In this document: positions 342 to 64,000 of the stretch, one piece after another
Layout: each line of letters opens with the position of its first letter
Position numbering within the stretch: position 1 is the first letter of the stretch
Origin: an uncultured Ignavibacteriaceae bacterium
Lineage (GTDB): Bacteria; Bacteroidota; Ignavibacteria; UBA10030
NCBI GenBank assembly: GCA_964473365.1
Contig: CAYYOV010000014.1
Span: 137-64,136 of the forward strand
Direction of reading: 5' to 3'
Length of the DNA stretch: 64,000 bases
Translations under genes and position numbers: made by a program
Notes under the pieces: generated by a model
Seen by the model: only the letters and a program-made list of their open reading frames with translations
Told to the model about the DNA's origin: nothing
Database searches by the model: none

Positions 342-358
342 GGAAGTTCCGCCAACGC

Positions 359-386
359 CCCTCCTCCGGATCTCACCGGAGGAGGG
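359..386 (+). terminator. GC-rich intercistronic stem-loop between nosZ and the next gene (possible partial terminator or mRNA-stabilising hairpin)
   Basis: Perfect 11-bp inverted repeat CCCTCCTCCGG / CCGGAGGAGGG with the 6-nt loop ATCTCA, 18 nt after the nosZ stop. No U-tract follows. Confidence 0.4.
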
Positions 387-409
387 TGCGCTCGGCTGAA
401 AGGAGTTAC

Positions 410-5224: not shown

Positions 5225-5247
5225 TCGGAAGAACGATCGTCGACATC

Positions 5248-48324: not shown

Positions 48325-49020
48325 GTGTCTGCCGCCGCGCTCCATCCCAGAGAATCTGAACGCCTTGACGCATTGCGCCGGTACCGCATTCTCGACACGG
48401 CTCCGGAGCGGGCATTCGACGACCTGACGTATCTGGCGTCGTTCTTTTGCAAGACGCCGATGTCGCTCGTCACGTTCGTCGATCGTGACCGGCAATGGTT
48501 CAAGTCGCGGGTCGGAGTCCAACACCCGCAGACGTCGCGCAAGATCTCGTTCTGCGCTCACACGATCCTCCAGCCGACGGTCATGGTCGTTCCCGACATG
48601 CATGAGGACGACCGCTTCAGGGACAACCCGCTCGTGACGCACGAACCATCGGTCCGGTTCTATGCCGGGGCCCCGATCCTCAGCCCCGAAGGACTTCCGC
48701 TCGGCGCGCTCTGTGTGCTGGACCGAGTGCCGCGGACGCTCACGGTCGGACAGGAAGAGGCCTTGCGGGCGATGTCGCGCATCGCCGGCGCGGTCCTCGA
48801 GTCGAAGCGCTCGGTCGGTGAATTGGCTGTGGCAACGGAACGTCTCAACCTCCTGAGCCACATGATGCCGGTCTGTTCTTCGTGCGGACGCCTGCAGAGT
48901 GAATCGGGTGCATGGACGTCGCTCGAGCTCTTTGTCCGCGAACACGCGCATCAGGCGGGTGAGCTGCGGACCTGTCCCGATTGCGCCAAACGCCTCTACC
49001 CGAACTACATCCGCACCTGA
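48325..49020 (+). CDS. GAF-domain protein with a C-terminal CxxC...H...CxxC module
   Basis: The N-terminal ERLDALRRYRILDTAPERAFDDLTYLAS is typical of this GAF subfamily. The C-terminus reads CSSCGRLQSESGAWTSLELFVREHAHQAGELRTCPDCAKRLYP. GTG start. Confidence 0.8.
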   Translation: MSAAALHPRESERLDALRRYRILDTAPERAFDDLTYLASFFCKTPMSLVTFVDRDRQWFKSRVGVQHPQTSRKISFCAHTILQPTVMVVPDMHEDDRFRDNPLVTHEPSVRFYAGAPILSPEGLPLGALCVLDRVPRTLTVGQEEALRAMSRIAGAVLESKRSVGELAVATERLNLLSHMMPVCSSCGRLQSESGAWTSLELFVREHAHQAGELRTCPDCAKRLYPNYIRT

Positions 49021-49028
49021 CGACCACC

Positions 49029-52000
49029 GTGCGCTCCATCGCCCCCACCGGCCAGTCGGCATTCCGTGCGCGCGCCTGGTCCTTCCTGACGGCCGTCTTC
49101 CTGATCGTTGCATCTGCCGACGCCCAGACGATCTTTTCGTCCAAGGGTGAACCTTACATCCTCGACCAGTGGACGGTGAACGAGGGTCTGCCGCAGAACA
49201 CCGTGTCGGCCGTCGTTCAGACCTTCGACGGATTTCTGTGGCTTGCAACGAACGGCGGCCTTGTCCGCTTCGACGGCGTGCGCTTCCATACGTTTGAACG
49301 CATCTCTCCGACCGACGACCGCGCCTTCCGCATCACCAGTCTCGTCGAAGGACACGACAGCACGCTCTGGGTCGGAACGGAAGATGGCCAATTGTTCCGG
49401 TATCGTGCTGAGCATTTCGACCTCGTGTCGGCTCGGCAGGGAGCTGAGCCGACATTGTCGATCCTCGCTCTTGCACAGGATTCATCCGGGGTGATCTGGC
49501 TGGGAAGGATGAATGCAGGATTGGCGCGGGTCATGGGGTCGTCAGACGGCAAAGATTCGGTCACGCAATCAAGTTTACAGCCGACGTGGCAGATCCCGAT
49601 CGTGAGTACGATCAAAGCCAGTTCCACCGGATCTCTCTGGATCGGCGGCGGGGGGATTGCCGAACTGAAGGGATCCGGCATTCAGACGCACGAATTGCCG
49701 GAGCTGGACGCTCACGACTTGGTCGTCTCGGTGACGGTGGATTCGGCCGGACACGTATGGGCTGGCACCTCGGCGGGCCGCCTGTTTGAGCTCCATCAAC
49801 GCAAATTCGTCGAGACGCCGGCAACGCGCCTCCGGGATTCGTATGCGTTCGACGAAGTCCTTTTCGACGGACCGCCGGCCCTGATCAACGCCATGCGGTC
49901 GGGTGTGTTGCGGTATCTGGACGGCCGATTCTATCGGCAAGGGACCGAGCGATGGGGCCGGGCATTCATGGTCCGCAGCGTGTTGACCGACCGTGAAGAG
50001 AACACCTGGATTGGGACCGTGAGCCAGGGGTTATTCAGGATCCGTCGCGCCACGTTTGACCACTGGGACCTCGACGACCCGCAGCGCAATGTCACGGCCA
50101 TGGTGCATGACGGTCGACACGGCACCTGGGTTGGATTGAATTGTGGGGGCGTGCTGTTGGTTCGCGACGGAAAGGTCATCCCACATCCAGTCTCGAGGTT
50201 GTTGAGTGGCCAGTGTGTGTGGTCACTGACCGTCGACCCGAGAGGGCGTCTCTGGGTTGGAACGTGGGGAGCTGGCCTCTGGAGAATGGACCCGGATCAG
50301 CCGGAGGCAACAGTACGACGGTGGGGTGCATCAAGTGGACTTCGAAGCGATGTGATCATGGCGCTCGAGCCCCGCCGCGCGGGAGGTCTGTGGGTGGGAA
50401 CACAGAATGCCGGCTTGGCTCACCTGAATGGTGAGAACGTTGAGCGCTGGACCACCAAGGAAGGCCTTCCTTCGGATGACATTCGCTCGTTCGCCGAGGA
50501 CAGCTTGGGCCGTCTCTGGATCGGCACACAGCTGGGACCGGCGGTCCTCGAAGCGGGGGATGTCCGTCGGCTCGCAGGGCCCTCCGGAAGCAACTACGCG
50601 CCCGTTCGGACCGTCATGCTCGATGGGGCCGGCTCTGTGTGGATGGGGACCTATGGCGGCGGACTCTTGCGGTGGAAGAACGGTAACCTGGTGCGGATCA
50701 CGACGAGCGATGGCCTCTACGACAATATCATATCCCAATTTCTGATCGGCCCGAATGGGTACGCATGGATGGGATGCAATCGCGGTATCTGGAAGGTCGC
50801 GCTCCAGGAATTGAACGCCGTCGCCGATGGTCGCATCGAGCAAGTCACTTCGATCACGTACGGACGTGGTGATGGCTTGCGCACCATCGAAACGAACGGG
50901 GGCTTCCAGCCGGCAGGTCTGCGACATCCGAATGGAGAGCTGTGGTTCCCGACCGCAAGCGGGATCGCCCGTACGAACCCGACCACGCTTCGTCCCAATC
51001 GTGCCAGTCCCCCGGTGGTTGTGGAGCAGGTGTTCGTCGACCGTGTCGCGCAATCGGTGCTCCCCCAGATGCACTTTCCCGCGGGAGTTGAAGAGGTGCG
51101 CATCGAGTTCACGGCACTGAGCTTCACGGCCCCCCAGAAGGTGCGGTTCAAGTACCAAATGGTGGGCTACAACAAGTCGTGGGTGGATGTGGGCAACGAA
51201 CGGAGCGCAACATTCACCAATGTCACCCCCGGCACATACCGATTCCGTGTCATCGCCGCGAACAACGACGGCGTCTGGAATGAGGATGGCGCTGAGATCA
51301 CACTCACCTTCGAGTTCCCGTTCTGGGCGACCCTTTGGTTCCGTCTCCTCGCCGTGCTCGCGTTGGTCGGCATGGGTATGCTCGTCGTCGCGATCCGGCT
51401 TCGCCAGGTCCGTTTAGAGAAGGAACGACAGGAAGAGACGTCAAGAAGGCTCATCCAAAGTCAGGAGGAGGAGCGGCAGCGGATCGCGGGAGAGCTGCAT
51501 GACGGTTTGGGCCAGGACCTCATCGTCTCCAAGAATCGCTTGCTGCTCGCGGCCCACTATCTTCAGGACGGCACCCCGGCCAAGGACGAATTGATGAATG
51601 TCGTAGACGCCGTGACCGCGGCACTGCGGAGCGTCCGATCGATCGCATACAATTTGCGGCCGTTCCAGCTCGACCGCCTCGGACTCACGGAGACGATCCG
51701 GTCGACGGTCCGTGCGATCCAGCAGGTCACGCCCGTCAAGATCGAAACAGAGATCGCGTCGGTCGATGGCCTCTTGAACCGAGAGGCCGAGATCGGCGTG
51801 TTCCGGATTGTCCAAGAGGCTCTGACGAATGTCGTCAAGCACTCGCAAGCGACCCGCGCGAGCGTCGTCGTCGCCTACGATGAAGGTCATATCGTGATCC
51901 GCGTCGAAGACAATGGCCGGGGCTTCGATACGCCCGTCGAGGACAACGCCCTGACGTTCGGGTTCGGGCTCTCGAGCATCGAGGAGCGCGTCAAGATGCT

Positions 52001-52103
52001 CGGCGGTGTGCACAAGTTCTCGTCGTCTCCCGAGAGCGGCACGACGATCGCGGCACGGGTACCGATCGAGGGGAACGAGCCGGAACCGGCGCCGGAGCCG
52101 TGA
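49029..52103 (+). CDS. Sensor histidine kinase with periplasmic beta-propeller repeats + Y_Y_Y domain, HisKA_3 and HATPase domains
   Basis: At least 11 repeats of the W(I/V)GT..GL type (LWVGTEDGQLFRY, TWIGTVSQGLFRI, LWVGTQNAGLAHL ...). Y_Y_Y-like FKYQMVGYNKSW...GTYRFRV. A TM helix. H-box IAGELHDGLGQDL. The start is uncertain (TTG 48981 or GTG 49029). Confidence 0.9.
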   Translation: MRSIAPTGQSAFRARAWSFLTAVFLIVASADAQTIFSSKGEPYILDQWTVNEGLPQNTVSAVVQTFDGFLWLATNGGLVRFDGVRFHTFERISPTDDRAFRITSLVEGHDSTLWVGTEDGQLFRYRAEHFDLVSARQGAEPTLSILALAQDSSGVIWLGRMNAGLARVMGSSDGKDSVTQSSLQPTWQIPIVSTIKASSTGSLWIGGGGIAELKGSGIQTHELPELDAHDLVVSVTVDSAGHVWAGTSAGRLFELHQRKFVETPATRLRDSYAFDEVLFDGPPALINAMRSGVLRYLDGRFYRQGTERWGRAFMVRSVLTDREENTWIGTVSQGLFRIRRATFDHWDLDDPQRNVTAMVHDGRHGTWVGLNCGGVLLVRDGKVIPHPVSRLLSGQCVWSLTVDPRGRLWVGTWGAGLWRMDPDQPEATVRRWGASSGLRSDVIMALEPRRAGGLWVGTQNAGLAHLNGENVERWTTKEGLPSDDIRSFAEDSLGRLWIGTQLGPAVLEAGDVRRLAGPSGSNYAPVRTVMLDGAGSVWMGTYGGGLLRWKNGNLVRITTSDGLYDNIISQFLIGPNGYAWMGCNRGIWKVALQELNAVADGRIEQVTSITYGRGDGLRTIETNGGFQPAGLRHPNGELWFPTASGIARTNPTTLRPNRASPPVVVEQVFVDRVAQSVLPQMHFPAGVEEVRIEFTALSFTAPQKVRFKYQMVGYNKSWVDVGNERSATFTNVTPGTYRFRVIAANNDGVWNEDGAEITLTFEFPFWATLWFRLLAVLALVGMGMLVVAIRLRQVRLEKERQEETSRRLIQSQEEERQRIAGELHDGLGQDLIVSKNRLLLAAHYLQDGTPAKDELMNVVDAVTAALRSVRSIAYNLRPFQLDRLGLTETIRSTVRAIQQVTPVKIETEIASVDGLLNREAEIGVFRIVQEALTNVVKHSQATRASVVVAYDEGHIVIRVEDNGRGFDTPVEDNALTFGFGLSSIEERVKMLGGVHKFSSSPESGTTIAARVPIEGNEPEPAPEP

Positions 52104-52186
52104 TCTCCACGTCGAGCCCTCCACCGCATCTGCGCTGAGATGCCCAGGAAAGATGATGCGCCGTTGCGGTACACTCTTTGTCCCTG

Positions 52187-52840
52187 ATGCCCAAACCACA
52201 CACCATATTGATCGCCGATGACCATCCCGTGTTCCGACGCGGGATGGTGCAGATCATCGAGGAGAAGTTCTCCGGCTCGCGCATCGTCGAAGCCGGAAAC
52301 GGCTCTGAGGCGCTCATCGCGATCCATGATCATCGACCGACCATCGCGATCCTCGACGTCGACATGCCGAAACGGAACGGCCTCGACGTCGCCACAGAGA
52401 TCCGCCGGCGCGGACTGCAGGTGGCCGTCGTCATCCTCACGATGCACGACAACGAAGAGTTCTTCAATCGAGCGATGGATCTGGGTGTCATGGGATACGT
52501 GTTGAAGGATGGGGTCGTTGGAGAGATCGCCACCTGTCTCGAAGCGGTCGCGGCGGGGCGCCACTACTACTCTCCGCTACTGACCGATTACTGGGTGCGG
52601 CGCGACCAGGCGAAGTCCCAGATCAAAACACTCCTGGCTGGTCTTGCCGGCCTCACCCCCACCGAGCGGCACATCCTCAAGTTGATCGCGGAAAGCAAGA
52701 CCACCCGTGAGATCGCTGAGGTCCTCTTCATCAGCCCTAAGACCGTCGACAACCACCGCTCGAATATTGCCGCCAAGCTGAATCTGAAGGGGAACAATGC
52801 GGTTCTTCGCTTTGCGCTGGAGAACAAGGCGAAGATGTGA
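52187..52840 (+). CDS. NarL/FixJ-family response regulator (receiver + LuxR HTH)
   Basis: ILIADDHPVFRRG and IAILDVDMPKRNG. C-terminal LTPTERHILKLIAESKTTREIAEVLFISPKTVDNHRSNI. Confidence 0.9.
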   Translation: MPKPHTILIADDHPVFRRGMVQIIEEKFSGSRIVEAGNGSEALIAIHDHRPTIAILDVDMPKRNGLDVATEIRRRGLQVAVVILTMHDNEEFFNRAMDLGVMGYVLKDGVVGEIATCLEAVAAGRHYYSPLLTDYWVRRDQAKSQIKTLLAGLAGLTPTERHILKLIAESKTTREIAEVLFISPKTVDNHRSNIAAKLNLKGNNAVLRFALENKAKM

Positions 52841-52966
52841 CCAGCGTCACGTCCAGAGGGGTCGCATAGGGGCTGGCCCCTGGTACGTTGAGGATTCCCA
52901 CCTATTGAGCGCGCGGCAACCTCTGCCGTTATTGGTGTCGTACTAAGGACATCCAAAACCTCGCCC

Positions 52967-53338
52967 GTGAAGATTCTGCTGGTTGAACAGAACCCTACGC
53001 TTCGTGGTCTCCTGCGCTCGATCCTCGAATTGGGCCACGCCGAGATCGCGGAGGCAAGCGACGCCACCGCGGCCCTGCGGGCGTTCTCAGAGTACCGACC
53101 TGATTGGGTCCTCGTCGATCTGACGCTGCGAGAGATGGACGGTTTCGACGCGACCCGGCTCCTGAAGTCGTCGCATCCGGAGGCGAAGGTGATGCTCGTG
53201 GCCGACCAGGACAGTCTCGCGCTTCGCAAGAAGGCGCGCGCGGCTGGTGCGGGCGGCATCCTGGTCAAAGAGGACCTGTACCGTGATCTGCGGCGAACGC
53301 AGTTTCTCCCCATGGCGCCGCCACGGCCATTGCCGTGA
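52967..53338 (+). CDS. Stand-alone receiver-domain protein with an atypical acidic pocket
   Basis: The receiver fold pattern has LLVEQN in place of the usual DD/DE pair. The acceptor-like D in WVLVDLTL and the K in ILVKEDL are retained. GTG start. It ends 14 nt before the next ORF. Confidence 0.75.
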   Translation: MKILLVEQNPTLRGLLRSILELGHAEIAEASDATAALRAFSEYRPDWVLVDLTLREMDGFDATRLLKSSHPEAKVMLVADQDSLALRKKARAAGAGGILVKEDLYRDLRRTQFLPMAPPRPLP

Positions 53339-53352
53339 AGCGAACCTGAATC

Positions 53353-53865
53353 ATGGGACAGACGCTTCTATCGGCCGGACTTATTGTGATCGTGACGATC
53401 GCCGTCATCAATGCGAATCGGCTGGTCATCAACAGTCAGACTACCAAGCTCGAGGCGCAGGCTCGGCTCGAGGCGTCGGATATCGCCATGGAGATCATCA
53501 CCGAGGCCAGGACGAAGAAGTTCGATGAAAAAGTCGACGGGACCGATTGGCAGGCTGTAGACGAGTTCACAGAGGCCTCGTCACTGGGCCCGGACGGGAG
53601 TGAGTCGTTCACGATGCCCGACGTCGTTACGTATCAATCCGCATCGCGATTCGACGACTTCGATGATTACAAGGGGTACAGGCGGACCGCTTCGTCATCG
53701 CAATTGAGCGGCTACTCGGTCTCGTGCGACGTTTTCTACGTCAAGCGGGAGGCTCCTGACACAAAGACGACCAACCGAACATACTTGAAAAAAATGATCG
53801 TCTACGTGACCCACTCCCTGTATCTGCGCGACACGCTGCGCATCAGCATGACGAAGACGCATTGA
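53353..53865 (+). CDS. N-terminally anchored small protein, minor-pseudopilin-like (non-canonical)
   Basis: MGQTLLSAGLIVIVTIAVINANRL hydrophobic N-terminus followed by an amphipathic helix (EASDIAMEIITEARTKKFDE) and a beta-rich C-terminus. It lies next to pilC/pilB-like genes. No G|FTLIE leader. Function is inferred. Confidence 0.55.
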   Translation: MGQTLLSAGLIVIVTIAVINANRLVINSQTTKLEAQARLEASDIAMEIITEARTKKFDEKVDGTDWQAVDEFTEASSLGPDGSESFTMPDVVTYQSASRFDDFDDYKGYRRTASSSQLSGYSVSCDVFYVKREAPDTKTTNRTYLKKMIVYVTHSLYLRDTLRISMTKTH

Positions 53866-53866
53866 C

Positions 53867-54424
53867 ATGGGCGCGATCCTCGATATCATTGGGTCGTATA
53901 TCTTCAAGGCGGCGATGGTTGGCATCATCCTGGCGACCTCGATGTCGCTCAACGAAGTGATGACGAAGAAGGCCCAACAGACGAACCTTGAGAAGACGAT
54001 GAACATCGCATTATCGGTCGTCGACTGGGACCTTCGCAACATCGGCTACAACTACTCCGGATCATCGAAGATTGTGTATTTCAACTCGACCGGGTTCAAA
54101 TACTATGGCGATGTGGACAACAACGGCACGGTCGATTCGGTCCAGTGGGTCGTCTCATCACCGAAAGTGACGGTCGGCGACAGTCTGGTAACGAGATATA
54201 CCGTTTCGCGCAGATTGAACAACGGGTCGTACTATTCGGTCTTGTCGCGCTTGCGTCATCTCGATGTCGCCTTTCTGGATGCTTCAGGAAGCGCCACGAG
54301 TACGCCTGCCAGCGTTCGTGCGATCCGGATCAAGATCACCGCGGAATCTCCGTTTATCATTAATGGCGAGATCCTGACGGCAACTCGGCAGATTACCGTG
54401 TTCCCGCCGAACCTCGCATTCTAG
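53867..54424 (+). CDS. N-terminally anchored small protein, minor-pseudopilin-like (non-canonical)
   Basis: Starts 1 nt after the previous stop. It has a hydrophobic N-terminus (FKAAMVGIILATSMSL) and a beta-rich C-terminus whose pattern (VDNNGTVDSVQW..., IRIKITAES) recalls PilW/GspJ-type minor pilins. Function is inferred. Confidence 0.55.
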   Translation: MGAILDIIGSYIFKAAMVGIILATSMSLNEVMTKKAQQTNLEKTMNIALSVVDWDLRNIGYNYSGSSKIVYFNSTGFKYYGDVDNNGTVDSVQWVVSSPKVTVGDSLVTRYTVSRRLNNGSYYSVLSRLRHLDVAFLDASGSATSTPASVRAIRIKITAESPFIINGEILTATRQITVFPPNLAF

Positions 54425-54437
54425 TTCCCGCAAGATC

Positions 54438-54941
54438 ATGAGACACTCTTCGCTCATTTTTGTCGGCGGCTTCACGCTCGTCTTCGGCTTCTTCGCGGCG
54501 GAATCGTACGACGCCGATGCCGACGCACTCCGGACTGCGGAGATACGCGCTTCGCAGATGCAGGCCGACCTCATCGCCGAGGCCGGCTGCTACATGGCCT
54601 CACATGCGGCAGCGATCAGTGCGTGGGGAACGACGACGACCGCCATGAATGGCGGCACGCTGACCTATACCGTCACGAAGCCGACTTCGACACCTGCACT
54701 CTCTTCACCGGATTGGGAGAACATCAGCGGAGTGTGGTATCCCCTGAAAGCAACAGCAGTGTGTACCGGGAAATACGGTGAGATCACCATCGTGAAACGT
54801 GCGGCGCTGGAGAAGCGCTCCGTGACGGCCGCCGGCTACCTGACGTGGCGCCAGTGGGTCATCAAGCGCCTCTATACGGACCCCTATTCACTCGCCGACC
54901 CCCGTACCGATTCGCTCATGGCGAATTCCGTTCGTCGGTGA
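54438..54941 (+). CDS. N-terminally anchored small protein with a GG|FTLV prepilin-like N-terminus lacking Glu+5
   Basis: MRHSSLIFVGGFTLVFGFFAAES resembles a class III signal (G|FTL) but has Phe at +5. The following helix ADLIAEAGCYMA is PilX-like. Function is inferred. Confidence 0.55.
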   Translation: MRHSSLIFVGGFTLVFGFFAAESYDADADALRTAEIRASQMQADLIAEAGCYMASHAAAISAWGTTTTAMNGGTLTYTVTKPTSTPALSSPDWENISGVWYPLKATAVCTGKYGEITIVKRAALEKRSVTAAGYLTWRQWVIKRLYTDPYSLADPRTDSLMANSVRR

Positions 54942-55118
54942 GGGATCTTTTGATCGGGGCGAAACGCAGATACCGTCCCACGATAAACACCGGTAATCCC
55001 TTCAAAAACCGCAGTCGAGCCCTCCGGTTTTGTGGTTCTTTCCGAGTTTTTTCACTAGGTTCAAAATTGTCGCAGTCTATCACTTACGCTCGAACGCTCA
55101 AGCGAAGTCTTCCTCAGA

Positions 55119-56717
55119 ATGTCTAATTGGGACCAAAAAAAGATCGGGTCCGTTGTTGAGGTCAACAGCACCGGCGTCGAAGTAAAGATCGATGCGGAAG
55201 GCGGCCTCACGCGCAAGATCGGCGAGAAGACCTATTATGTGGGTCAGATCGGGACGTACGTCCTCATCCCGATCGGGCAATCCTACGTCATCGGTATCGT
55301 GTCCGAAGCCCGCCGGACGGACAGCTCGAACGGCGAGACGCCGATGATGGTCGCCACGACCCTCATTGGGACGATCCGGAAGGGGAAGTTCGAACCCGGC
55401 GTATCGGTCCTACCGAGCATCGACATGCCCGTGTACCTTCTCGAGGACAAGGACATTCGTGGCGCTTTCCAGGCCTTCCAGCAATACAATTTCTCGATCG
55501 GCACCCTGTCTATGTTCGAGACAGAACGGGCCTATCTGAACCCGAACAAGTTCTTCGGGAAGCACATTGCCGTCCTCGGGAGCAGCGGGTCCGGAAAGTC
55601 GCACACGGTCGCCTCGGTCCTTCAAAAGGTCGTGTCGCTTCCCGAGACGCACGTCGTCATCCTCGACCTGCACAACGAATACCGTCAGGCCTTTCCCGAC
55701 ACGGGGCAGTACTGCGAGATCTCTTCCCTGGAGCTGCCGTACTGGCTGCTGAACTTCGACGAAATGCGGGAGATGTTCGTCGACCCGAACGACGAGAACG
55801 CGTCGATCCAAATGTCGCTGCTGCAGGACCTCGTCATCCTGTCGAAGAAGGACAAGAACCCGCGCTTGACCGACGTGATCACGCTCGATTCCCCTGTCTA
55901 TTTCGACCTGGCCGCCATCCGCGGCCGTCTGCAATTCCTCGACGGGGAAAAGGTCACGAGCAGTGCCGGCATGCGGGAGGGTCCCTTCTCCGGAAAGCTG
56001 ACGCGGCTCATCGCCCGGCTCGACACGAAGATGAACGACTCGCGGTACGCGTTCATGTTCAAGCCGAAGCTCATGGCCGATACCGAATCGGCCGTGTCGC
56101 TCCTCATGATGTTGTTCGGCCTGAGCGGCAAGTCGCGCGTGACGCTCATGGACCTCAGCGGCGTACCATCGGATATTTTGAAAACGATCGTTGCCCTCCT
56201 GGCCCGGCTGGCATTCGATTTCAATTTCTGGAATCCAAATCGTTCGGAGTTGCCGATCCTTCTCGTCTTTGAGGAGGCACACAACTATCTCTCGGTGCAT
56301 GCCGAGGGTTCGACAGCGGCCCGCAAGACGGTCGAACGGATCGCCAAAGAAGGCCGAAAATACGGCGTCAGTTGTATGCTCGTCAGCCAACGGCCGGCCG
56401 AGATCTCCGAGACGATCCTGTCTCAGTGCAGCAATTTCATCCTGTTGCGTCTGCTGAACCCGACCGACCAGGCGTACATCCGCCGGCTCGTCCCGGAATC
56501 GTTCAGCGGGCTTGAGTCCTCTATTTCGCTGCTCCGGCAGGGCGAAGCGATCATCCTGGGTGATTCCATCCCGATGCCGCAGCGGGTGCAGATCGACCCG
56601 CCGTCGCCGCCGCCACTGAGCTCCGACGTGCTCTTCTTCGACAAATGGAAGAAAAGCGACGTGAAGACCGATCCGCACGAAGTGCTCGAGCGGTGGTGGA
56701 ACCAACAGCGTAACTGA
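55119..56717 (+). CDS. HerA/FtsK-clade P-loop ATPase (DUF87/HerA central domain with an N-terminal HAS-barrel-like domain)
   Basis: N-terminal beta-barrel pattern IGSVVEVNSTGVEVKID...VGQIGTYVLIPIGQSYVIGIVSE. Walker A HIAVLGSSGSGKSHTV. LLVFEEAHNYL (Walker B/sensor). GRKYGVSCMLVSQRPAEISETILSQCSNFILLRL. The stop is 2 nt before the pilC-like start. Confidence 0.85.
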   Translation: MSNWDQKKIGSVVEVNSTGVEVKIDAEGGLTRKIGEKTYYVGQIGTYVLIPIGQSYVIGIVSEARRTDSSNGETPMMVATTLIGTIRKGKFEPGVSVLPSIDMPVYLLEDKDIRGAFQAFQQYNFSIGTLSMFETERAYLNPNKFFGKHIAVLGSSGSGKSHTVASVLQKVVSLPETHVVILDLHNEYRQAFPDTGQYCEISSLELPYWLLNFDEMREMFVDPNDENASIQMSLLQDLVILSKKDKNPRLTDVITLDSPVYFDLAAIRGRLQFLDGEKVTSSAGMREGPFSGKLTRLIARLDTKMNDSRYAFMFKPKLMADTESAVSLLMMLFGLSGKSRVTLMDLSGVPSDILKTIVALLARLAFDFNFWNPNRSELPILLVFEEAHNYLSVHAEGSTAARKTVERIAKEGRKYGVSCMLVSQRPAEISETILSQCSNFILLRLLNPTDQAYIRRLVPESFSGLESSISLLRQGEAIILGDSIPMPQRVQIDPPSPPPLSSDVLFFDKWKKSDVKTDPHEVLERWWNQQRN

Positions 56718-56719
56718 CC

Positions 56720-58075
56720 ATGGCCCGGATGCCGACCAAGGTTGAGTACCGTGTCTCCGCTCAGGATCGTGCCGGGCGGGCGCTGGTGAAGTACGTCATG
56801 GCCACGTCGTACATGGAGGCGCGGTCGAGGGGGCGGGAGTGGACGTCGCGCAACGGGGCCCAGCTGCTGAAGGTCGAAAAGAAGCGGACGTTCGTCTACA
56901 AGGCACGCCGCGGAGACAAGCTCATCACGGGTACGCAAAGCGCGTATTCGAGGGCGGAGGTAACGGCTGCGCTCAAGCGCATCGGCTACCAGGTCCAATC
57001 GGTCTACACGCCCTTCTCGATCAAGTTCGCGGCGCCGGCGACGGATATTGTCGGGTTCGTCTCGCAGAGCGCAAAACTGCTCGAGCAGAAGCTGCCGTTC
57101 AACGAGGTCCTTGTTCTGATGTCCGACAACATCAAGAACAAAGCCCTCAACCAGTGCATCCGCGACGTGATGAACGACCTTCGGAACGGTATGGATTCCC
57201 GGGAGGCGTTCCTCCGTCAATCGCAGGTGCTTGGCTACCACACGGCCTTGTTGCTCGGCATCGCAACGAAGAGCGGCGATGTGGCGGCGATCTTCCGGAG
57301 CGTGGCCCAGCTGGTCGAACGGCAGGCGGAGTTCTCCAAGGGCCTGAAGTCGGCGCTGCTCATGCCGGCCGTTACCGCGGTCACCCTCGTCGGGGCCATC
57401 ATCTTCTATGCGATGTATCTCGTGCCGCAGATGATGGACATGCTCGGCCCGATGATGTCGGAGATCCCTCCGGTGACCGCCTTCACGCTGGAGGCGAGCG
57501 CGTTCATCCAGGAGAACTACCCCTGGCTCATTGGGCTCTTCCTCGCCATCGTTGGAGGATTCTACGGCTGGCTGACGACGAGCAACGGCCGTCTGCAGTT
57601 CGATCGGTACGTCGTCCGCATGCCTTACGTGGGGACGATCCTCAAGAACACTTCGGTCGAAATCTTTACAAGGGTACTCAGCATCATCTATACATCGTCG
57701 GGTGAGAATATCGAAGCGATGCAGGTGGCAGCAGACGCGAGCGGAAATCTGTGGTTCGCTCGTCAGATCCGGACCGTCGCTTCTCCGATGATGCTGACAC
57801 AGGGCGTGGAGCTGGGCCGGGCCCTCGCCGCAACGGAGTTCCTGCCCGAAATGGCCCTGTCGCGATTTCGGACGGCAGCCGAGACAGGTTCGGTCAAGAC
57901 GACGGCGCAGAATCTCGCCGATTATTACGAGACAGAGAATTCGTTCGCGATGAAGAACCTGGTCAGCATCATCGAGCTGGGCGTCACGGTCATCATCATG
58001 GGTTCGCTCGTCTTCCTGACGTTGTTGTCGTCGGAGACAGCAAGCATCGACACCAGCCGGATCGGCGTCGGATAA
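56720..58075 (+). CDS. PilC/GspF-family platform protein (two T2SS-F domains) with a duplicated N-terminal cytoplasmic domain
   Basis: Two GspF-like repeats (…ALNQCIRDVMNDLRNGMDSREAF… and …NLWFARQIRTVASPMMLTQGVELGRAL…), each followed by TM helices. Two N-terminal (F/Y)x(Y)(K/R)..D..G modules are present: KVEYRVSAQDRAGR... and TFVYKARRGDKLIT... Confidence 0.85.
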   Translation: MARMPTKVEYRVSAQDRAGRALVKYVMATSYMEARSRGREWTSRNGAQLLKVEKKRTFVYKARRGDKLITGTQSAYSRAEVTAALKRIGYQVQSVYTPFSIKFAAPATDIVGFVSQSAKLLEQKLPFNEVLVLMSDNIKNKALNQCIRDVMNDLRNGMDSREAFLRQSQVLGYHTALLLGIATKSGDVAAIFRSVAQLVERQAEFSKGLKSALLMPAVTAVTLVGAIIFYAMYLVPQMMDMLGPMMSEIPPVTAFTLEASAFIQENYPWLIGLFLAIVGGFYGWLTTSNGRLQFDRYVVRMPYVGTILKNTSVEIFTRVLSIIYTSSGENIEAMQVAADASGNLWFARQIRTVASPMMLTQGVELGRALAATEFLPEMALSRFRTAAETGSVKTTAQNLADYYETENSFAMKNLVSIIELGVTVIIMGSLVFLTLLSSETASIDTSRIGVG

Positions 58076-58078
58076 GAC

Positions 58079-59878
58079 ATGGAACAACAACCCGCACCTT
58101 CAAAGAACGTGAAGCGGGACCTGCCCGCCCTGCTCGTTGAGCACGGCGTGGTGACCCAGAGCGTCCTCGACGAAGCCTCGGCGGTGATGGCGACCGACCC
58201 GGCGCCGTCGCCGCGTCGGCTCGTGCGCATCCTGGCCGACCAGTTCAAGGTGGACGCCGACGCCCTCTACCGCGAGGTGGCTCAGTTCTACGCGTTCAGA
58301 ACGCTCGACGTCGAACGCGAAGGGATTACGGACGACCGGATCGCGTTCATCCGGGCGATGTTGGAATACCTGCCGCCGCATCTTCAGGACCGGGCCGCCG
58401 ATTCGCAGGTGCTGCCGTTTACGGTCGATGCGACGAATCCCAATCGACTCCTCCTGGTTTCTCCCGACCCGACGCGGCGCGAGGTCTACGAGGTCGCGAA
58501 GGGGACCGGATACAAGTCGTTCGAGATCTGCTTCACCCCGCCCAGCCAGTGGCAGGACCTGTGGCGCAAGGTGGTCGTCGCACGGCCTTCGCAAGCGCAG
58601 GGGCAATACTCGACCGGCGCGATCGAAGAAGTGGAGGAGGAAGAGGACGAAGGGTTCGAGCGCGAGATCGAGCAGGAGATCAGCCGGAGCGGGCTGATGA
58701 CCCTGATCGACAATATCCTCGTCGACGGCGTACGCGTCGGGGCAAGCGATATTCATGTGATCCCGCGTGGCGAGAAGATCTCGGAGTTCCACTTCCGCAT
58801 CGACGGTAAGTTGACGCTCTGGCTCCGTTACACGGAGGCCCGCACCGAAGCGGTCTCGGCAGTGCTCAAGGACCGCGCAAAAGGTCTGGACCGGTTCGAA
58901 CGGAACATGGCGCAGGACGGGTTCGCGCAGATGCTCATCGACGGCAAGACGATCCGCTTCCGCGTCTCGGTCCTGCCGACGGTAGGGAAGGAGCTCAAGA
59001 GCAAGCACGAATCGATCGTCATTCGTATCCTGCAGGAACCGAACCTGTCCATCCGGATCGAGGACCTCGGGTTCAATCCGCAGGCCGAGCAATCGCTCCG
59101 GAAGGCCATCGCCAAGCCGCACGGGATCATCATCGTCACAGGCCCGACGGGATCCGGGAAAAGCACGACGCTCGTGGCCGCCCTGCGCGCCATCATGGAC
59201 CCGGCGTACAACATTCTGACCGTCGAAGACCCTGTCGAGTATTTCATCGACGGTGCCAGGCAGATCAAGCTGAACCCGAAACTCGATTTCGAGGGGGCTC
59301 TGCGCGCCATCCTGCGTCACGATCCTGACATCGTCATGGTCGGTGAGATGCGCGACAGGATCACGGCGGAGATCGCCATCAAGCTCGCGAACACCGGTCA
59401 CTTGACCTTCTCGACGCTCCATACGAACGATTCGGTCAGCGTCATTTCGCGACTCATGAAGATGGGCGTCGAACCGTTCCTCATCGCATACGCGATCAAC
59501 CTCGTCGTCGCGCAACGGCTGATGCGGCGCCTCTGCCCGCGATGCAAGGCCCCGATGCCCGTGACGGAGTATGATGAGCTACGGGCGCTTGGACTGACGG
59601 AGGCGGAGATCAACAACGGGTCGTTCTTCTCGGCCGTGGGATGTTCGGATTGCATCGGCGGGTATCGTGGTCGTCGGGCGATCCATGAAGCATTGTATTT
59701 CACTAAAGACATCCGTAAGCTCATCATGCAATCCGACACGATGGTCGATGATGAGAAGATCCGCGAGGGAGCAGCCCGCGGCGGTATGCTCACGTTGCGA
59801 CAAGCGGCCATCAATCTGCTGAAAGAAGGGGTGACCTCGGTCGACGAAGTGGTCTCTGTCACGTCAGAGGAAGACTGA
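58079..59878 (+). CDS. PilB/GspE-family type IV filament assembly ATPase
   Basis: GspE-N-like N-terminus. Walker A GPTGSGKSTT. Asp/His boxes (VGEMRD, TGHLTFSTLHTN). Tetracysteine motif CPRC...CSDC, typical of extension ATPases. Confidence 0.9.
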   Translation: MEQQPAPSKNVKRDLPALLVEHGVVTQSVLDEASAVMATDPAPSPRRLVRILADQFKVDADALYREVAQFYAFRTLDVEREGITDDRIAFIRAMLEYLPPHLQDRAADSQVLPFTVDATNPNRLLLVSPDPTRREVYEVAKGTGYKSFEICFTPPSQWQDLWRKVVVARPSQAQGQYSTGAIEEVEEEEDEGFEREIEQEISRSGLMTLIDNILVDGVRVGASDIHVIPRGEKISEFHFRIDGKLTLWLRYTEARTEAVSAVLKDRAKGLDRFERNMAQDGFAQMLIDGKTIRFRVSVLPTVGKELKSKHESIVIRILQEPNLSIRIEDLGFNPQAEQSLRKAIAKPHGIIIVTGPTGSGKSTTLVAALRAIMDPAYNILTVEDPVEYFIDGARQIKLNPKLDFEGALRAILRHDPDIVMVGEMRDRITAEIAIKLANTGHLTFSTLHTNDSVSVISRLMKMGVEPFLIAYAINLVVAQRLMRRLCPRCKAPMPVTEYDELRALGLTEAEINNGSFFSAVGCSDCIGGYRGRRAIHEALYFTKDIRKLIMQSDTMVDDEKIREGAARGGMLTLRQAAINLLKEGVTSVDEVVSVTSEED

Positions 59879-59906
59879 GGCCGGTCCATCCCCTCCCCCA
59901 TCCTGC

Positions 59907-61385
59907 ATGGCCGTCCGTTCCGACATACAACAACAAGCTGGCGAGATCGCCCGGGCGAAAGCTGCGGCGAAGGAATGCCTCATTGCGGCCGACAAGTTCC
60001 TGAAGGACCGGCAGTTCGACAAGGCGCGTGCACAGGTCAACAAGGCGAAGGAGATCGACCCGTCGAACCCGTATATCTCGGCCTTCGAGGAACGGATCAA
60101 GATCTTCGAAGAGCAGTTGAAGTCGCAGCCCGCGCCTGCACCCAAGGCTCCGGAGCCTCCTCCGGCTGCGGCACCCAAGGTAGAACCGGTCGCGCCTCCA
60201 AAGCCGGTAGCCGAGCCTCCCAAGGCCAAGCCGACGCCTCCGCCGACCCCGGTGGTGGAGAAGCCGAAGCCGGCCCCGGCGCCTGTCGTCGAGAAGCCTT
60301 CTCCGCCCCCGGCACCCGTGGTCGAAAAGCCGAAGCCGGTTCCGCCTCCGGTCGTGGAGAAGCCCAAACCGGCGCCAGCCCCAGCTCCTGAGCCGGCGAA
60401 GCCGAAGCCTGTGCCTCCTCCTCCCGAACCAGAGCCCGAGCCTGTGCCGGAGCCACCTCCGGCCCGGCCAGCCCGTGCGGCGATGCCTCCGGACGAGACA
60501 GTGCTACCCAGGCATGTACCTGAGCCTGCGCCTGCAAAGACCGCAGCAGCTGGTCCGCCTCCATCGGACGAACTGAAGGTGAAGATGGAGGAGATGAGCC
60601 GGCAGATCATGGAATTGTCATCGGCGCTCCTGTCCGAACGGCGGACGCGCGAAGATATTCTCAAGAAGCAGCTCGAACAGTCCGTCAGCCGTTTTCGCGA
60701 AGGATTGCGGAAAGCGTGGTCACTCGGCGCTCCGAAAGAGAAGGCACAGGCGGAGGTGGACGCGCTGGCGCATTCGCTCGGCCTTGATGACGACGTCATC
60801 TCCTCGGTGACCCGCGAAGTGAAGTTGGAGATGTATGGGCGTGCCGTGAAAGAGATGTTGGCCAAGCGCAAGCTGATTCGGAGCTCATCGTCCACGATGG
60901 ATTGGCTGCGAAAGGTCTATCAGATCTCGATGGCCGAGTATCTGGAGTATGAGTCGAAGTTCCTTCTCGACCTGGTGACCGACCAGTTCCGCGGCACGTT
61001 GCTGCTTGTGGCCGGGACCGACTCTGTCCGGCGTGACCTGGCGGTGCGGATGAAGTCGTCCGGGTTCGCCGTCGTCGCGGCGCTGACCCCGGAGGAGGCC
61101 CTCGAGAAGATCGAGCGCGTCAGTCCGACGATCGTGCTGACGGAGACGCAGTTCCCCGGACGTGTCGTCAGCGGCGTGATGTTCCTGCAGTTGCTGCGCG
61201 CCAACCCGAAGTTCTCGTTCGTACCTGTCGTTCTGCTGTGCGACGAGCAGGAGGCGGTGACGCTGCAATCGTCCGAGCTGAGGGACATCGAAGGCGTCAT
61301 CCGAACGCCCGTCGATTACGATGAATTGAACGCAATGATCAACGAGAAGTTGGCGGCGTTGCGAAACGCCATCTCGAATATTTGA
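59907..61385 (+). CDS. Pro-rich repeat protein with a C-terminal pseudo-receiver domain
   Basis: N-terminal helical/TPR-like segment. A Pro-rich linker of about 140 aa contains 4x PVVEKPKP. A coiled-coil-like middle follows. The C-terminal receiver-like fold (TLLLVAGTD...PTIVLTETQFPG...VPVVLLCD...IRTPVDYDEL) has Glu at the acceptor position. Confidence 0.75.
   Translation: MAVRSDIQQQAGEIARAKAAAKECLIAADKFLKDRQFDKARAQVNKAKEIDPSNPYISAFEERIKIFEEQLKSQPAPAPKAPEPPPAAAPKVEPVAPPKPVAEPPKAKPTPPPTPVVEKPKPAPAPVVEKPSPPPAPVVEKPKPVPPPVVEKPKPAPAPAPEPAKPKPVPPPPEPEPEPVPEPPPARPARAAMPPDETVLPRHVPEPAPAKTAAAGPPPSDELKVKMEEMSRQIMELSSALLSERRTREDILKKQLEQSVSRFREGLRKAWSLGAPKEKAQAEVDALAHSLGLDDDVISSVTREVKLEMYGRAVKEMLAKRKLIRSSSSTMDWLRKVYQISMAEYLEYESKFLLDLVTDQFRGTLLLVAGTDSVRRDLAVRMKSSGFAVVAALTPEEALEKIERVSPTIVLTETQFPGRVVSGVMFLQLLRANPKFSFVPVVLLCDEQEAVTLQSSELRDIEGVIRTPVDYDELNAMINEKLAALRNAISNI
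60249..60371 (+). repeat. In-frame tandem repeat encoding 4x P(A/P)PVVEKP(K/S)P
   Basis: The DNA repeats GTGGTGGAGAAGCCGAAGCC / GTCGTCGAGAAGCCTTCTCC / GTGGTCGAAAAGCCGAAGCC / GTCGTGGAGAAGCCCAAACC recur at 33-nt spacing. Confidence 0.8.
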
Positions 61386-61435
61386 ATCACCGGCGGTCCG
61401 CCCAGCGCGGGACGCGCCGCACCCCAGAGGCTGAT

Positions 61436-61810
61436 ATGGCGAAACAGATCTTGCTGGCCGAAGATGACGAGGACAACCGCGACCTCATGGTGTTCGTGGT
61501 CGAACGGGGAGGGCTGGATGCCGAGCTGCTCCTTGCGGAGAATGGGCAACAGGCCGTCGAGATCGCGCGCGCCAAGAAGCCGGTATTGATCTTGATGGAC
61601 ATGCAGATGCCGGTCATGGACGGGTTCACGGCAGTGAAGATTCTGAAAGCCGACCCGGAGACGCAGGAGATCCCGATTATCGCGTTCACGGCGCAGGCGC
61701 GTGCGGAGGACAAGGAGATCACCCGGTCGATCGGTTGCGTGGAGCACTACACGAAGCCGATGGACCCGGAAGAGCTCATCACGCTCATCCGCCGGTATAT
61801 CGGCGAGTAA
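61436..61810 (+). CDS. CheY-like single-domain response regulator
   Basis: ILLAEDDEDNRD, VLILMDMQMPVMDG, IPIIAFTAQA, YTKPMD: all canonical receiver residues are present. Confidence 0.9.
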   Translation: MAKQILLAEDDEDNRDLMVFVVERGGLDAELLLAENGQQAVEIARAKKPVLILMDMQMPVMDGFTAVKILKADPETQEIPIIAFTAQARAEDKEITRSIGCVEHYTKPMDPEELITLIRRYIGE

Positions 61811-61836
61811 CCCAGACCTTTCGAGATATCACGATC

Positions 61837-64000
61837 ATGTTCCGTTCACGGGTCTATCTTCGGGTGCTGGGGAACTTCGGGTTCCTCCTCATCGTCCTTG
61901 TCGCGATGACCGTTCTCATCACCCGCGTCCTCAATCAGATGCAGTCGGGATATGCGTCGGCGTCGGCTGATATTGCATTTCTGAGTTCGCTCACGAACTT
62001 GCGCACGACGCTGGGTGAAACGCCGGACTATCTGGACCTGTATCTGTCGACGAAAGACCAGAATGCCCGTGACGCCTATGTCGCCGGGTCGAAGAGCGTC
62101 GATGAATCGTTCAACGACCTCAAGTCGTTGACGACGGACTCATTGACGGCCAGCTACCTGAATCAGGCGCGGGCGCTGTTCGTGGCCTGGCAGGAGTTCG
62201 TCGTCCAGCCACGCGTCCGGTTGGCCGAGGAGACCCTCAGGCCCGATTCTGTCGAGCTCCTCACCGCGAACATTCGCGACGCTGAAATGAACGGCCGCTA
62301 TCTGTTCCAGATGCGGTCGATCCTGACGTCGCTCGTCCAGCGTCAGCTCTCCTCGCAGTCGATCCAGATGGAGAGTGCCAGGACCCTCGGGTCCGGACTT
62401 GGCCAGTTCATCGTGTTCGTCAACGTGTTGTTCGCGTTGTTCGCGGTTGCCCTTGGATTCTTCCTGACCCGGTCGATCACCCGTCCGCTCAATCAGCTGC
62501 GGGAGGGGACGCAGAACATCATGCAGTCGAAGTACGTGCCGCTCGACATCCAGCGGAGCGACGAATTCGGCGAGCTCGCCGCCGACTTCAACACGATGTC
62601 GACCATGCTCCGGGAGAACTACACGCGCATCCGGTCGTACTCCGACCTCATGACGGTCCTCAACGAGAACGAGTCGACAAGCGGCGTGTTGTCGAAGAGT
62701 CTCGACCTTCTTTGCCAGCAGGTCGGGGCCATCAACGGAGCCTTCTACTTGTACGATCGCGAGACGAACCGGCTCGACCTGCGCGGAAGCTTCGCCTTGC
62801 GGGCCGACCGGACGGCGATCACCTCCTTCGCCGTCGGCGAGGGGATCCCAGGGGAATGTGCGCGACTCCGGACGCCGCTCGAGGTGAACGATCTCCCGCA
62901 ACTCGTGGCGTTCCCCGTCGACACCGGCTTGAACACGATCACGCCCAAGACGGCGTACGCGGTACCGGTCATGTTCCAGGAAAATCTCGTCGGCGTCCTC
63001 GTCCTCGGCTCGACGAAACCGCTGGATGAATTCACGAAGGCACTCGTTTCGAGCGCAGCGCCGCAGATCGGCGTGGCCATCACGAACGCCCTCAACTTTG
63101 AGGCGACCCAGGCCCTGACGCAGGAGCTGACGGCGAAACATGCGGAGCTGAACGGCAAGAATGCCGAGCTGGAGCGGGCATATCAGGTGAAGTCGGACTT
63201 CCTGTCGAACATGTCGCACGAGCTTCGGACGCCGCTCAATTCGATCATCGGGTTCACGTCGATCCTGCTGAGCGATCGAGGCGACCCGATGACCGCAGAC
63301 CAACGGAAGGCGATGGAAAAGGTGCTCAAGAACGGCAAGCACCTTCTCCAACTGATCAACGACATTCTGGACTTCTCGAAGATCGAATCGGGCCGGATGC
63401 ACGTGAGCGTAGAGACCGACTCCGTCGAAAGCGTGGTCAACGGCGCGATCCTCACGGCGGAACATCTTGTGAGACAAAAGGGGCTCGAGCTGAAGGACGA
63501 GATCCAGGCCGGCATGCCGATGCTGCAGACCGACACGCTGAAGATCAAGCAGATCATCGTCAACCTCCTCAGCAACGCGTCGAAGTTCACCGACCAGGGC
63601 GCGATCGAGGTGAAATCCTGGTTCGACAAGGGCCTCGTCCACGTGTCGGTGAAGGACTCCGGTATCGGCATCGAACAGAAGGACATCGACCGGATCTTTG
63701 AAGAGTTCCAGCAGATTGACAGCAGCCATTCGAGGAAGTACAAAGGCACAGGGCTGGGCCTACCGATCGCGCGGCGTTTGGCGCGACTCCTCGGTGGCGA
63801 CCTCGTCGCCACGAGCACCTACGGACAGGGTTCGACCTTTACGTTGACTGTGCCGCCCGAGCTGCCGAAGAGTGCGTCGGAGCGGGCCGACGTGACGCAA
63901 AAGCCGATCGTCTTACCGGCCACCCCGGCCAAGCCGGCTGTGCCGCCATCGAAACCGGCGGTGTCGGCCCCGACGGTCGAGAAGCCTCCGGCGCCGACCC
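61837..64000 (+). CDS. Sensor histidine kinase (2 TM + HAMP + GAF + HisKA + HATPase), 3' end outside the window
   Basis: This ORF is open to the window end and so is absent from the ORF track. HAMP-like TRSITRPLNQLREGTQNI...DEFGELAADFNTM. A GAF-like region. H-box FLSNMSHELRTPLNSI. N/G boxes NLLSNASKF, DSGIGI, GTGLGL. A Pro-rich tail begins at about 63900. Confidence 0.85.
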   Translation, partial: MFRSRVYLRVLGNFGFLLIVLVAMTVLITRVLNQMQSGYASASADIAFLSSLTNLRTTLGETPDYLDLYLSTKDQNARDAYVAGSKSVDESFNDLKSLTTDSLTASYLNQARALFVAWQEFVVQPRVRLAEETLRPDSVELLTANIRDAEMNGRYLFQMRSILTSLVQRQLSSQSIQMESARTLGSGLGQFIVFVNVLFALFAVALGFFLTRSITRPLNQLREGTQNIMQSKYVPLDIQRSDEFGELAADFNTMSTMLRENYTRIRSYSDLMTVLNENESTSGVLSKSLDLLCQQVGAINGAFYLYDRETNRLDLRGSFALRADRTAITSFAVGEGIPGECARLRTPLEVNDLPQLVAFPVDTGLNTITPKTAYAVPVMFQENLVGVLVLGSTKPLDEFTKALVSSAAPQIGVAITNALNFEATQALTQELTAKHAELNGKNAELERAYQVKSDFLSNMSHELRTPLNSIIGFTSILLSDRGDPMTADQRKAMEKVLKNGKHLLQLINDILDFSKIESGRMHVSVETDSVESVVNGAILTAEHLVRQKGLELKDEIQAGMPMLQTDTLKIKQIIVNLLSNASKFTDQGAIEVKSWFDKGLVHVSVKDSGIGIEQKDIDRIFEEFQQIDSSHSRKYKGTGLGLPIARRLARLLGGDLVATSTYGQGSTFTLTVPPELPKSASERADVTQKPIVLPATPAKPAVPPSKPAVSAPTVEKPPAPT

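Follow-up and report, generated by a model that had tools for sequence, protein, structure and literature searches.

What does it mean when the gene for a HerA-type ATPase stands directly in front of the genes for a type IV filament motor? The question is raised by one end of a 64,000-nucleotide stretch of DNA from an uncultured Ignavibacteriaceae bacterium (contig CAYYOV010000014.1; the whole stretch is called the window here), in which herA, pilC and pilB follow one another on the same strand: the ATG of pilC lies 2 nucleotides (nt) past the TGA of herA, and pilB starts 3 nt past the stop codon of pilC. A sequence-only reading of this locus had proposed a two-motor machine, in which HerA would be a core member of the filament operon. 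Its description of the locus proved accurate. The order, coordinates and spacings of the genes, including a 177-nt gap ahead of herA and the 2-nt and 3-nt junctions, were all reproduced from the open reading frames (ORFs) of the window, and the motifs GSSGSGKS, LLVFEEAHNYL and LVSQRPAEIS...FILLRL of HerA and CxxC...CxxC of PilB are present in the translations. The profile search that it had called for confirmed the families DUF87, T2SSF and T2SSE for the HerA-like, PilC-like and PilB-like proteins. The proposed machine fared less well. Our preferred explanation, to which we give a probability of about 0.6, is that a lineage-specific change of gene order put a phylum-wide HerA before pilC, and that HerA is not a structural part of the filament module.

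We compared gene order from both sides of the herA-pilC junction. On the HerA side, one genome per species was scanned with an alignment of 15 orthologs as the query, and the best 80 of 337 relatives were kept, with HerA proteins 56-96% identical to that of the window. All window proteins were then compared with the kept loci by tblastn, and the 65 loci that extend at least 1.5 kb downstream of herA were taken as informative. On the PilC side, PilC homologs led to three annotated loci (L089, L090 and L091; related loci carry L numbers throughout), and a metagenome scan gave 80 loci with PilC identities of 38-80%; 43 loci are informative for a HerA upstream and 68 for a PilB downstream. All relatives are metagenome-assembled genomes (MAGs) or metagenome contigs, their flanks span 10 kb, and genes in unannotated loci are naive longest-ORF calls. 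The HerA homologs and kept loci with a named lineage all come from Ignavibacteria/Ignavibacteriota or "Bacteroidota" MAGs, and the nearest species-level genome is JALONQ01 (L009), whose HerA is 96% identical.

Directly downstream of herA, pilC (together with pilB) was found in 5 of the 65 informative loci, all five with HerA identities of at least 73%, and in none of the remaining 60. Within the flanks of those 60, a pil gene of any kind occurs once, in L014 (HerA 70%), where pilC lies on the opposite strand 9 kb upstream. Seen from PilC, the result is the same. HerA stands upstream in 1 of 43 informative loci, namely L092 (PilC 80%), which belongs to the clade of the window, and in 0 of the other 42, while PilB directly follows PilC in 67 of 68. 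Because the adjacency is missing from all 60 other HerA loci and all 42 other PilC loci, HerA is, by this comparison, not a core component of the filament system, contrary to what the sequence-only reading had supposed. Since the HerA and pilus gene sets lie apart in the rest of the phylum, their adjacency is most likely a local change of gene order and not a new two-motor machine. What does hold is the trio itself within the shallow clade of the window, where it is kept in five species-level genomes and in metagenome contigs (HerA 73-96%); elsewhere in the related genomes we saw no synteny, an outcome that the earlier reading had itself taken to mean chance juxtaposition.

The finer structure of this clade was examined with a rough neighbour-joining tree of HerA, calculated without support values. 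The HerA-PilC-PilB loci form one clade in it. Its sister group contains L014, in which HerA is attached to a phosphorelay, a group in which HerA follows a histidine kinase and a response regulator-kinase fusion (HK-RRHK-HerA), and a few unlinked loci; the loci with sucD and ndk and a group of HerA paralogs stand separately. The spacing of 2-9 nt between HerA and PilC is found in the innermost relatives only and amounts to 33 nt in L007, 90 nt in L004 and 97 nt in L008. The gap between PilC and PilB is at most 14 nt everywhere, or the genes overlap. The HerA proteins of the clade carry six clade-specific substitutions, all conservative, and no indels, compared with one to five such substitutions in the other groups, and nothing in this pattern points to an adaptation of HerA to a new partner.

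Some observations nevertheless weigh against a mere accident of gene order. Between the window and L008, a single inversion has turned exactly HerA-PilC-PilB relative to a block of three small genes (s1-s3) and to the phosphorelay block, so that the trio survives as a unit, as an operon under selection would. HerA also stays in or next to the same relay/filament set in three arrangements, those of the window, of L008 and of the L014/L089 type, and the link with the relay persists in the HK-RRHK-HerA group as well. A functional tie of HerA to the relay/filament system is possible in the light of these findings; both the co-transcription of HerA with the pil genes and its functional independence are putative.

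What kind of protein is this HerA? By profile and by predicted structure, the 532-residue ATPase is a true member of the HerA family. It matches the Pfam family DUF87 (PF01935) with an E value of 1.5e-32 (114 bits, cutoff 23) and aligns over its full length, from residue 5 on, with the PADLOC model HerA PDLC04105 (505 bits). The motifs GSSGSGKS and LLVFEEAH are invariant over the 15 orthologs. An AlphaFold2 model (mean predicted local distance difference test score, pLDDT, of 71.5) consists of a beta-rich N-terminal domain (residues 8-107, pLDDT 65-83) and a RecA-like core; no Pfam model for the HAS-barrel matches, yet residues 8-107 are predicted as all-beta, as a HAS-barrel would show. By homology to solved hexamers, the protein would form a hexameric ring that translocates DNA.

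Its closest relatives of known structure are the HerA subunits of defence complexes. In a phmmer search of the PDB these came first (9c1m with 333 bits, 8xau with 301, 8ziq with 299), and Foldseek aligned the model over its full length with DUF4297-HerA and SIR2-HerA chains at E values of about 1e-35 and 30-34% identity. Shared with these chains (9c1m, 8xau, 8ziq and 8wiv; phmmer 247-333 bits) are a predicted N-terminal beta-barrel, the DUF87/RecA-like core and the C-terminal helices. The window protein differs from them in being about 40-50 residues shorter and in lacking an adjacent effector gene, and it reaches only 403 bits with the NCBIfam equivalog HerA_antiphage_2 (NF042944), where the cutoff is 850; NF042943 gives 180 bits (cutoff 800). 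The HerA of the archaeal and bacterial HerA-NurA end-resection helicase (4d2i, 9x1l) belongs to the same DUF87 family but is much more distant, with 116 bits for archaeal 4d2i and 130 bits for the NCBIfam model helicase_HerA. PADLOC and Pfam scans of the window neighbours returned no SIR2, DUF4297 or NurA effector, in line with the earlier observation that none of these partners is adjacent, and in the loci inspected for annotated genes, HerA has no NurA, Mre11 or Rad50 for a neighbour.

In some 90 related loci, the neighbours of HerA are sucD/ndk, SpoIIE, kinases or pilC. About 25-30 loci, with HerA identities of 62-67%, have the order gatA-sucD-HerA-ndk-NUDIX. In 16 species (65-67%), HerA lies between a hybrid HK-RR-HisKA pair and a cysE-like gene, about 38 nt past the RRHK gene, and the kinase of this group shares 56-62% identity with the relay kinase in L089. 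In L089 and L014, HerA closes the relay operon, which is divergent from PilC-PilB-s1-s2-s3, and starts 30 nt past a DUF6901 gene; L086 has it between a receiver and a ProREC-like gene (ProREC being the first gene of the relay block in the window). Across these lineages the recurrent neighbour of this HerA, as far as gene order tells, is the phosphorelay and not PilB/PilC. The repeated position of HerA after signalling genes (RR-HATPase/DUF6901, HK-RRHK, and SpoIIE among the paralogs) indicates that it may be a regulated output of such pathways. This reading is weakened by the sucD-ndk context, which is conserved to the same degree, so that gene order at such distances carries little weight.

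The paralogs form a second HerA group of their own (56-59% identity, about 25 loci: L003 and L063-L088; for example L003:8683-11632). There the order is a HAMP-guanylate-cyclase-type gene, a SpoIIE PP2C phosphatase, HerA, a molybdopterin oxidoreductase (Oxidored_molyb) and a ferric-reductase-type membrane gene. Many genomes carry this second paralog, and members of both groups often occur together in one genome (for example L032/L069, L038/L068 and L050/L073).

HerA thus appears as a separate ring ATPase of the whole phylum, with a tree that tracks genomic context, as vertical inheritance predicts. A recently transferred or mobile HerA was considered and rejected on the same grounds, the gene tree following genomic context and the two paralog groups being conserved. 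The G+C content of the window is even (0.58-0.63), and nothing marks the region as foreign.

For the clade of the window, we next consider how the trio is expressed. Conservation within the 177-nt gap is confined to one motif, TGGTTCTTTCC-N4-TTTTTCACTAGGTTCA, with 55 nt between its end and the HerA ATG. It is common to the window, L009, L010, L004 and L007 and is partly kept in L008, where herA heads a divergent unit. We regard the motif as a candidate promoter for a herA-pilC-pilB unit; it does not fit the sigma-70 consensus and could serve as an operator or as a promoter of the Bacteroidota type. A scan for sigma-70 promoters and intrinsic terminators over 52700-62000 gave counts no higher than in shuffled sequences and nothing in the 177-nt gap, Bacteroidota-type promoters lying outside its coverage. 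HerA, PilC and PilB are probably co-transcribed in this clade from an element in the gap.

The module to which HerA became a neighbour is a type-IV-filament-like one. A PilB/GspE-family ATPase next to a PilC/GspF-family platform protein is a mark of the type IV filament superfamily, and both are found here. They are divergent members, however, when set against the type IVa pilus (T4aP) and the type II secretion system (T2SS). The tetracysteine T2SSE protein (CPRC...CSDC in the translation), the adjacent T2SSF protein and small proteins that begin with a hydrophobic helix and are predicted to fold in a pilin-like way are shared with the PilB-PilC (GspE-GspF) core of those systems, but PilB and PilC stay below all equivalog cutoffs, the pilin-like proteins have neither the canonical leader nor Glu5, and a large phosphorelay is attached. 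In numbers, PilB scores 432 bits with TIGR02538 (cutoff 676) and 394 bits with GspE (cutoff 630), and PilC falls below the cutoff of every NCBIfam PilC and GspF model. The nearest described relative, which we offer as a lead only, is the divergent Bacteroidetes "T2SS" of Denise et al. 2019 (PMC6668835), which is described there as clustering with T4aP and having a very divergent pilin.

Elsewhere in the phylum the usual layout is a gene for a protein of about 130 residues (sm127), then PilC, PilB, s1, s2 and sometimes s3. Orthologs of s1 lie downstream of PilB in most PilC loci, and those of s2 come after s1, past PilB, in L089, L091 and many metagenome loci. A third small ORF takes the place of s3 in L004-L010, including L008, and in L089/L093; the s3 of the window is equated with the third ORF of L089 by position only, the L089 version having no tblastn match in the window. 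We also considered s1-s3 as partners of HerA and rejected the idea, as their orthologs travel with PilC-PilB where HerA lies elsewhere. Homologs of sm127 (L089:9208-9591, minus strand) stand upstream of PilC in about 39 loci (L093-L171), and by tblastn there is none in the window. HerA occupies the very place upstream of PilC where sm127, the putative major subunit, normally sits.

The small proteins themselves are unusual and match no known family in the profile searches. The AlphaFold2 model of s1 (pLDDT 82.6) has a helix over residues 2-53 followed by a sheet of four to five strands, which is the "lollipop" topology of pilins. Foldseek found no significant match for it in the PDB, where the top hit was a Thermus competence pilin (E 0.39) and most solved pilins are without the N-terminal helix, and because of this the pilin call for s1 rests on its topology. 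Its N-terminus reads M[SNG]LGQTM[IL]T... in the orthologs and MGQTLLS... in the window, that of s2 Mxx(x)LD[IL]IGS..., and that of sm127 MGQQQLLLIILG... or MGQQQLLLIILGVI..., with MG as the first two residues in 38 of 39 copies. The pilin-like proteins begin with a conserved M(x0-2)G-Q..., without a canonical G/FTLxE leader and without Glu5. Their leaders may be cleaved after two to four residues, or not cleaved at all, and the sm127 and s1 families may be the signature of a type IV filament variant of Ignavibacteriota that has yet to be described. Neither the annotated 10-kb flanks of the relatives nor the window, where ten of the larger ORFs were searched with Pfam and the others read at their N-termini, showed a prepilin peptidase, PilT, PilMNO(P/Q) or a secretin; such genes may lie elsewhere in the genome. 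The sequence-only reading had likewise seen no PilT, PilMNOPQ or prepilin peptidase, and within this partial check we agree.

The third element is the phosphorelay, whose members are ProREC, CheY, a hybrid HAMP-GAF kinase, RR-HisKA, RR-HATPase and DUF6901. The hybrid kinase is cut off by the end of the window, and the genes beyond 64000 are inferred from L004, L007 and L092. The window kinase is 48% identical to that of L089; its orthologs have 957-1026 residues, extend into a receiver domain and are followed by the genes for RR-HisKA, RR-HATPase and DUF6901. In many loci with PilC identities of 50-60%, the relay stands alongside PilC-PilB. In L091 the complete relay leads into PilC-PilB-s1-s2, HerA being absent, and L090 is similar. 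In L004, L008, L089, L090 and L091, the ProREC ortholog likewise comes before CheY and the kinase. The receiver-like domain of ProREC scores 27.8 bits with Response_reg, below the cutoff of 30.2, and hand alignment to the canonical receiver motif puts a Glu (IVLTETQFPG) at the phospho-acceptor position. The CheY-like gene probably starts at ATG 61433, as judged from 124-residue orthologs that begin with MxKQILLAEDD. In sum, PilB-PilC with its pilin-like proteins is a conserved filament module, and the relay is its frequent neighbour.

A few further observations belong to the relay. The linker of ProREC (window 60100-60500) is built from successive imperfect PVVEKPKP(A/V)P repeats; an extremely Pro-rich ORF at 35945-36490 on the minus strand (MGFPPPQRPPGPPRPPGMTPPRPAG...) is unrelated to it. 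The DUF6901 protein (Pfam PF21842, 246 bits; L089:992-1756, minus strand) is encoded by the constant last or near-last gene of the relay operon in L089, L008, L014, L091 and L092, and it comes after an RR-HATPase protein without a HisKA domain. On the minus strand at 33168-34865, the window also encodes a phosphatase with cyclic-nucleotide-binding, GAF and SpoIIE domains, which adds a further partner-switching-type enzyme to the region of the relay. A 564-residue gene far to the left in L004-L006 has the same domains and may be its equivalent.

How would the locus have arisen under the preferred explanation? It would be the local version of a widespread Ignavibacteriota set, a filament core of PilC-PilB-s1-s3 together with a multi-component phosphorelay. 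In the clade of the window (for example L092), the genes are those of L089 minus sm127, re-ordered into one same-strand array. In the sister lineages HerA is the last gene of a phosphorelay operon, as ...RR-HATPase-DUF6901-HerA or as HK-RRHK-HerA, and in more distant ones it lies between sucD and ndk or after a SpoIIE phosphatase; a rearrangement in the shallow clade would have brought it directly upstream of pilC, into the slot of the major pilin-like gene. The filament motor would be PilB acting on PilC, powering the insertion of subunits as in other type IV filaments, and the relay would control or modulate this motor via the hybrid kinase, the RR-kinase, CheY and the pseudo-receiver. HerA would be an ordinary hexameric translocase or scaffold driven by nucleoside triphosphates, co-expressed with the module in this clade and sharing its regulation, possibly through the relay.

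Against this stands the two-motor machine, in which HerA would have been recruited as a second ATPase, docked on PilB/PilC and moving DNA or another substrate during filament assembly. It would account for the tight coupling of the HerA stop with the PilC start (2-9 nt) in the window and its closest relatives, for the passage of the trio through an inversion, for a conserved upstream motif that suggests one transcription unit, and for the place of HerA in the usual position of the major pilin-like gene. We still consider it quite improbable. None of the 42 other PilC loci and none of the 60 other HerA loci has the adjacency, herA and pilC are 33-97 nt apart in other members of the very same clade, HerA shows no clade-specific indels or domain changes, and no membrane or DNA-channel partner is present. 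A loose analogy had been drawn with the Ups pili of Sulfolobus, which work with the Ced importer and its HerA/VirB4-like CedB. The concept of a type IV filament with a HerA-clade ATPase is indeed shared. On the window protein, however, the models of CedB and CedD reach only 38 and 80 bits, far under their cutoffs of 700 and 600, there is no CedA-like membrane partner, and the adjacency is limited to one shallow clade. The premise of the sequence-only reading, that no described type IV filament class includes a HerA/FtsK-clade ATPase, agrees with our literature search, which found none and met HerA only as an outgroup or superfamily name. Judged by its distribution, the herA-pilC adjacency does not define a new filament class and is a lineage-specific arrangement.

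Could HerA instead be the output or partner of signalling, through the phosphorelay or RR-HATPase or through the SpoIIE PP2C phosphatase, sharing nothing but its controller with PilB/PilC? HerA is last in the relay operon of L014 and L089, directly follows HK-RRHK in 16 species, comes directly after the SpoIIE phosphatase and HAMP-cyclase in the paralog group and lies between a receiver and a ProREC-like gene in L086. However, the sucD-HerA-ndk order of about 25-30 loci is equally conserved and may simply reflect slow rearrangement, no known mechanism ties HerA to two-component or partner-switching control, and no regulatory domain is seen in HerA, so that we rate this reading as unlikely. Far less credible still is an anti-phage module in which HerA would act as in DUF4297-HerA or SIR2-HerA, with an unrecognised effector among its neighbours. 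Its nearest profiles and solved structures are defence-type HerA (PADLOC 505 bits, HerA_antiphage_2 403 bits, Foldseek E of about 1e-35), but the 403 bits are far under the NCBIfam cutoff of 850, and no SIR2, DUF4297, NurA or other PADLOC effector lies nearby. Moreover, HerA is found in wholly different company from lineage to lineage, while its own identity remains at 56-96%. In contrast to mobile defence genes and patchily distributed defence systems, this HerA is conserved across one phylum in two paralog groups, with a tree that tracks genomic context and with housekeeping or signalling neighbours. As a bolder and rather doubtful proposal, the orphan HerA of some Ignavibacteriota would be a genuine functional accessory to a non-canonical type IV filament system under phosphorelay control, for instance by coupling DNA handling to the filament or by serving as the regulated output of the relay. 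The clade of the window, with one herA-pilC-pilB transcription unit, would then be the most integrated form, and the filament, with its leader-poor "MGQ" pilins lacking Glu5, an undescribed variant.

The features of the locus are collected in Table 1. At the left edge of the window (45-6468, plus strand), well away from this locus, lies an accessory cluster for nitrous-oxide reductase, in which NosD is confirmed (Pfam NosD 153 bits, 1860-3209); an apparent C-terminal fragment of NosZ and ABC-type NosF/NosY-like genes are read there from N-terminal sequence only.

Table 1. The herA-pilC-pilB locus and its flanking genes in window coordinates
Feature	Position	Strand	Basis
Sensor histidine kinase (context gene)	48981..52103	+	ORF; L004/L007 orthologs, likewise placed upstream of the locus, have Reg_prop/Y_Y_Y, HisKA_3 and HATPase_c
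NarL/LuxR-type response regulator, partner of the upstream kinase (context gene)	52178..52840	+	ORF; orthologs in L004/L007 are Response_reg + GerE
Stand-alone receiver, first gene of the same-strand array	52967..53338	+	Pfam Response_reg E 7.1e-19; ahead of s1 in L004-L007
s1, pilin-like small protein	53353..53865	+	N-terminus MG-QTLLSAGLIVIV...; no Pfam or NCBIfam match
s2, second small N-anchored protein of the PilCB module	53867..54424	+	Conserved N-terminal motif LD[IL]IGS; orthologs
s3, third small N-anchored protein	54438..54941	+	Same position in relatives; no family match (Pfam, NCBIfam)
177-nt gap between s3 and HerA	54942-55118		
Conserved intergenic motif, candidate promoter	55033..55063	+	Alignment of HerA-upstream regions
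HerA-family P-loop ATPase, predicted hexamer, 532 residues	55119..56717	+	DUF87 core, GSSGSGKS, LLVFEEAH
PilC/GspF-type inner-membrane platform protein	56720..58075	+	T2SSF E 2.2e-24
PilB/GspE-type assembly ATPase with tetracysteine motif	58079..59878	+	T2SSE E 1.4e-103
ProREC, first gene of the phosphorelay block	59907..61385	+	Helical N-terminal domain, Pro-rich PVVEKPKP-type linker, C-terminal receiver-like domain
CheY-like single-domain response regulator	61433..61810	+	Response_reg E 9.9e-22; ORF opens at 61382
Hybrid histidine kinase, cut by the window end	61837..64000	+	Pfam: transmembrane region, HAMP, GAF, HisKA, HATPase_c

If HerA did work with PilB/PilC, a motor of the HerA clade would for the first time be seen in a bacterial type IV filament machine, and the coupling of DNA or other substrates to the dynamics of the filament would become accessible to study, a prospect that the evidence for a lineage-specific gene order lowers. 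Of value in its own right is an orphan HerA that is conserved across a phylum, is nearest to anti-phage HerA, has no effector and often follows signalling genes. So is the widespread PilB-PilC module of the Ignavibacteriota, with its large phosphorelay and with unusual pilin-like proteins that have very short leaders and no Glu5. Finally, the lineages in which herA lies in the pil operon, on the relay operon or unlinked to either offer a natural comparison for a functional link between HerA and the filament system.

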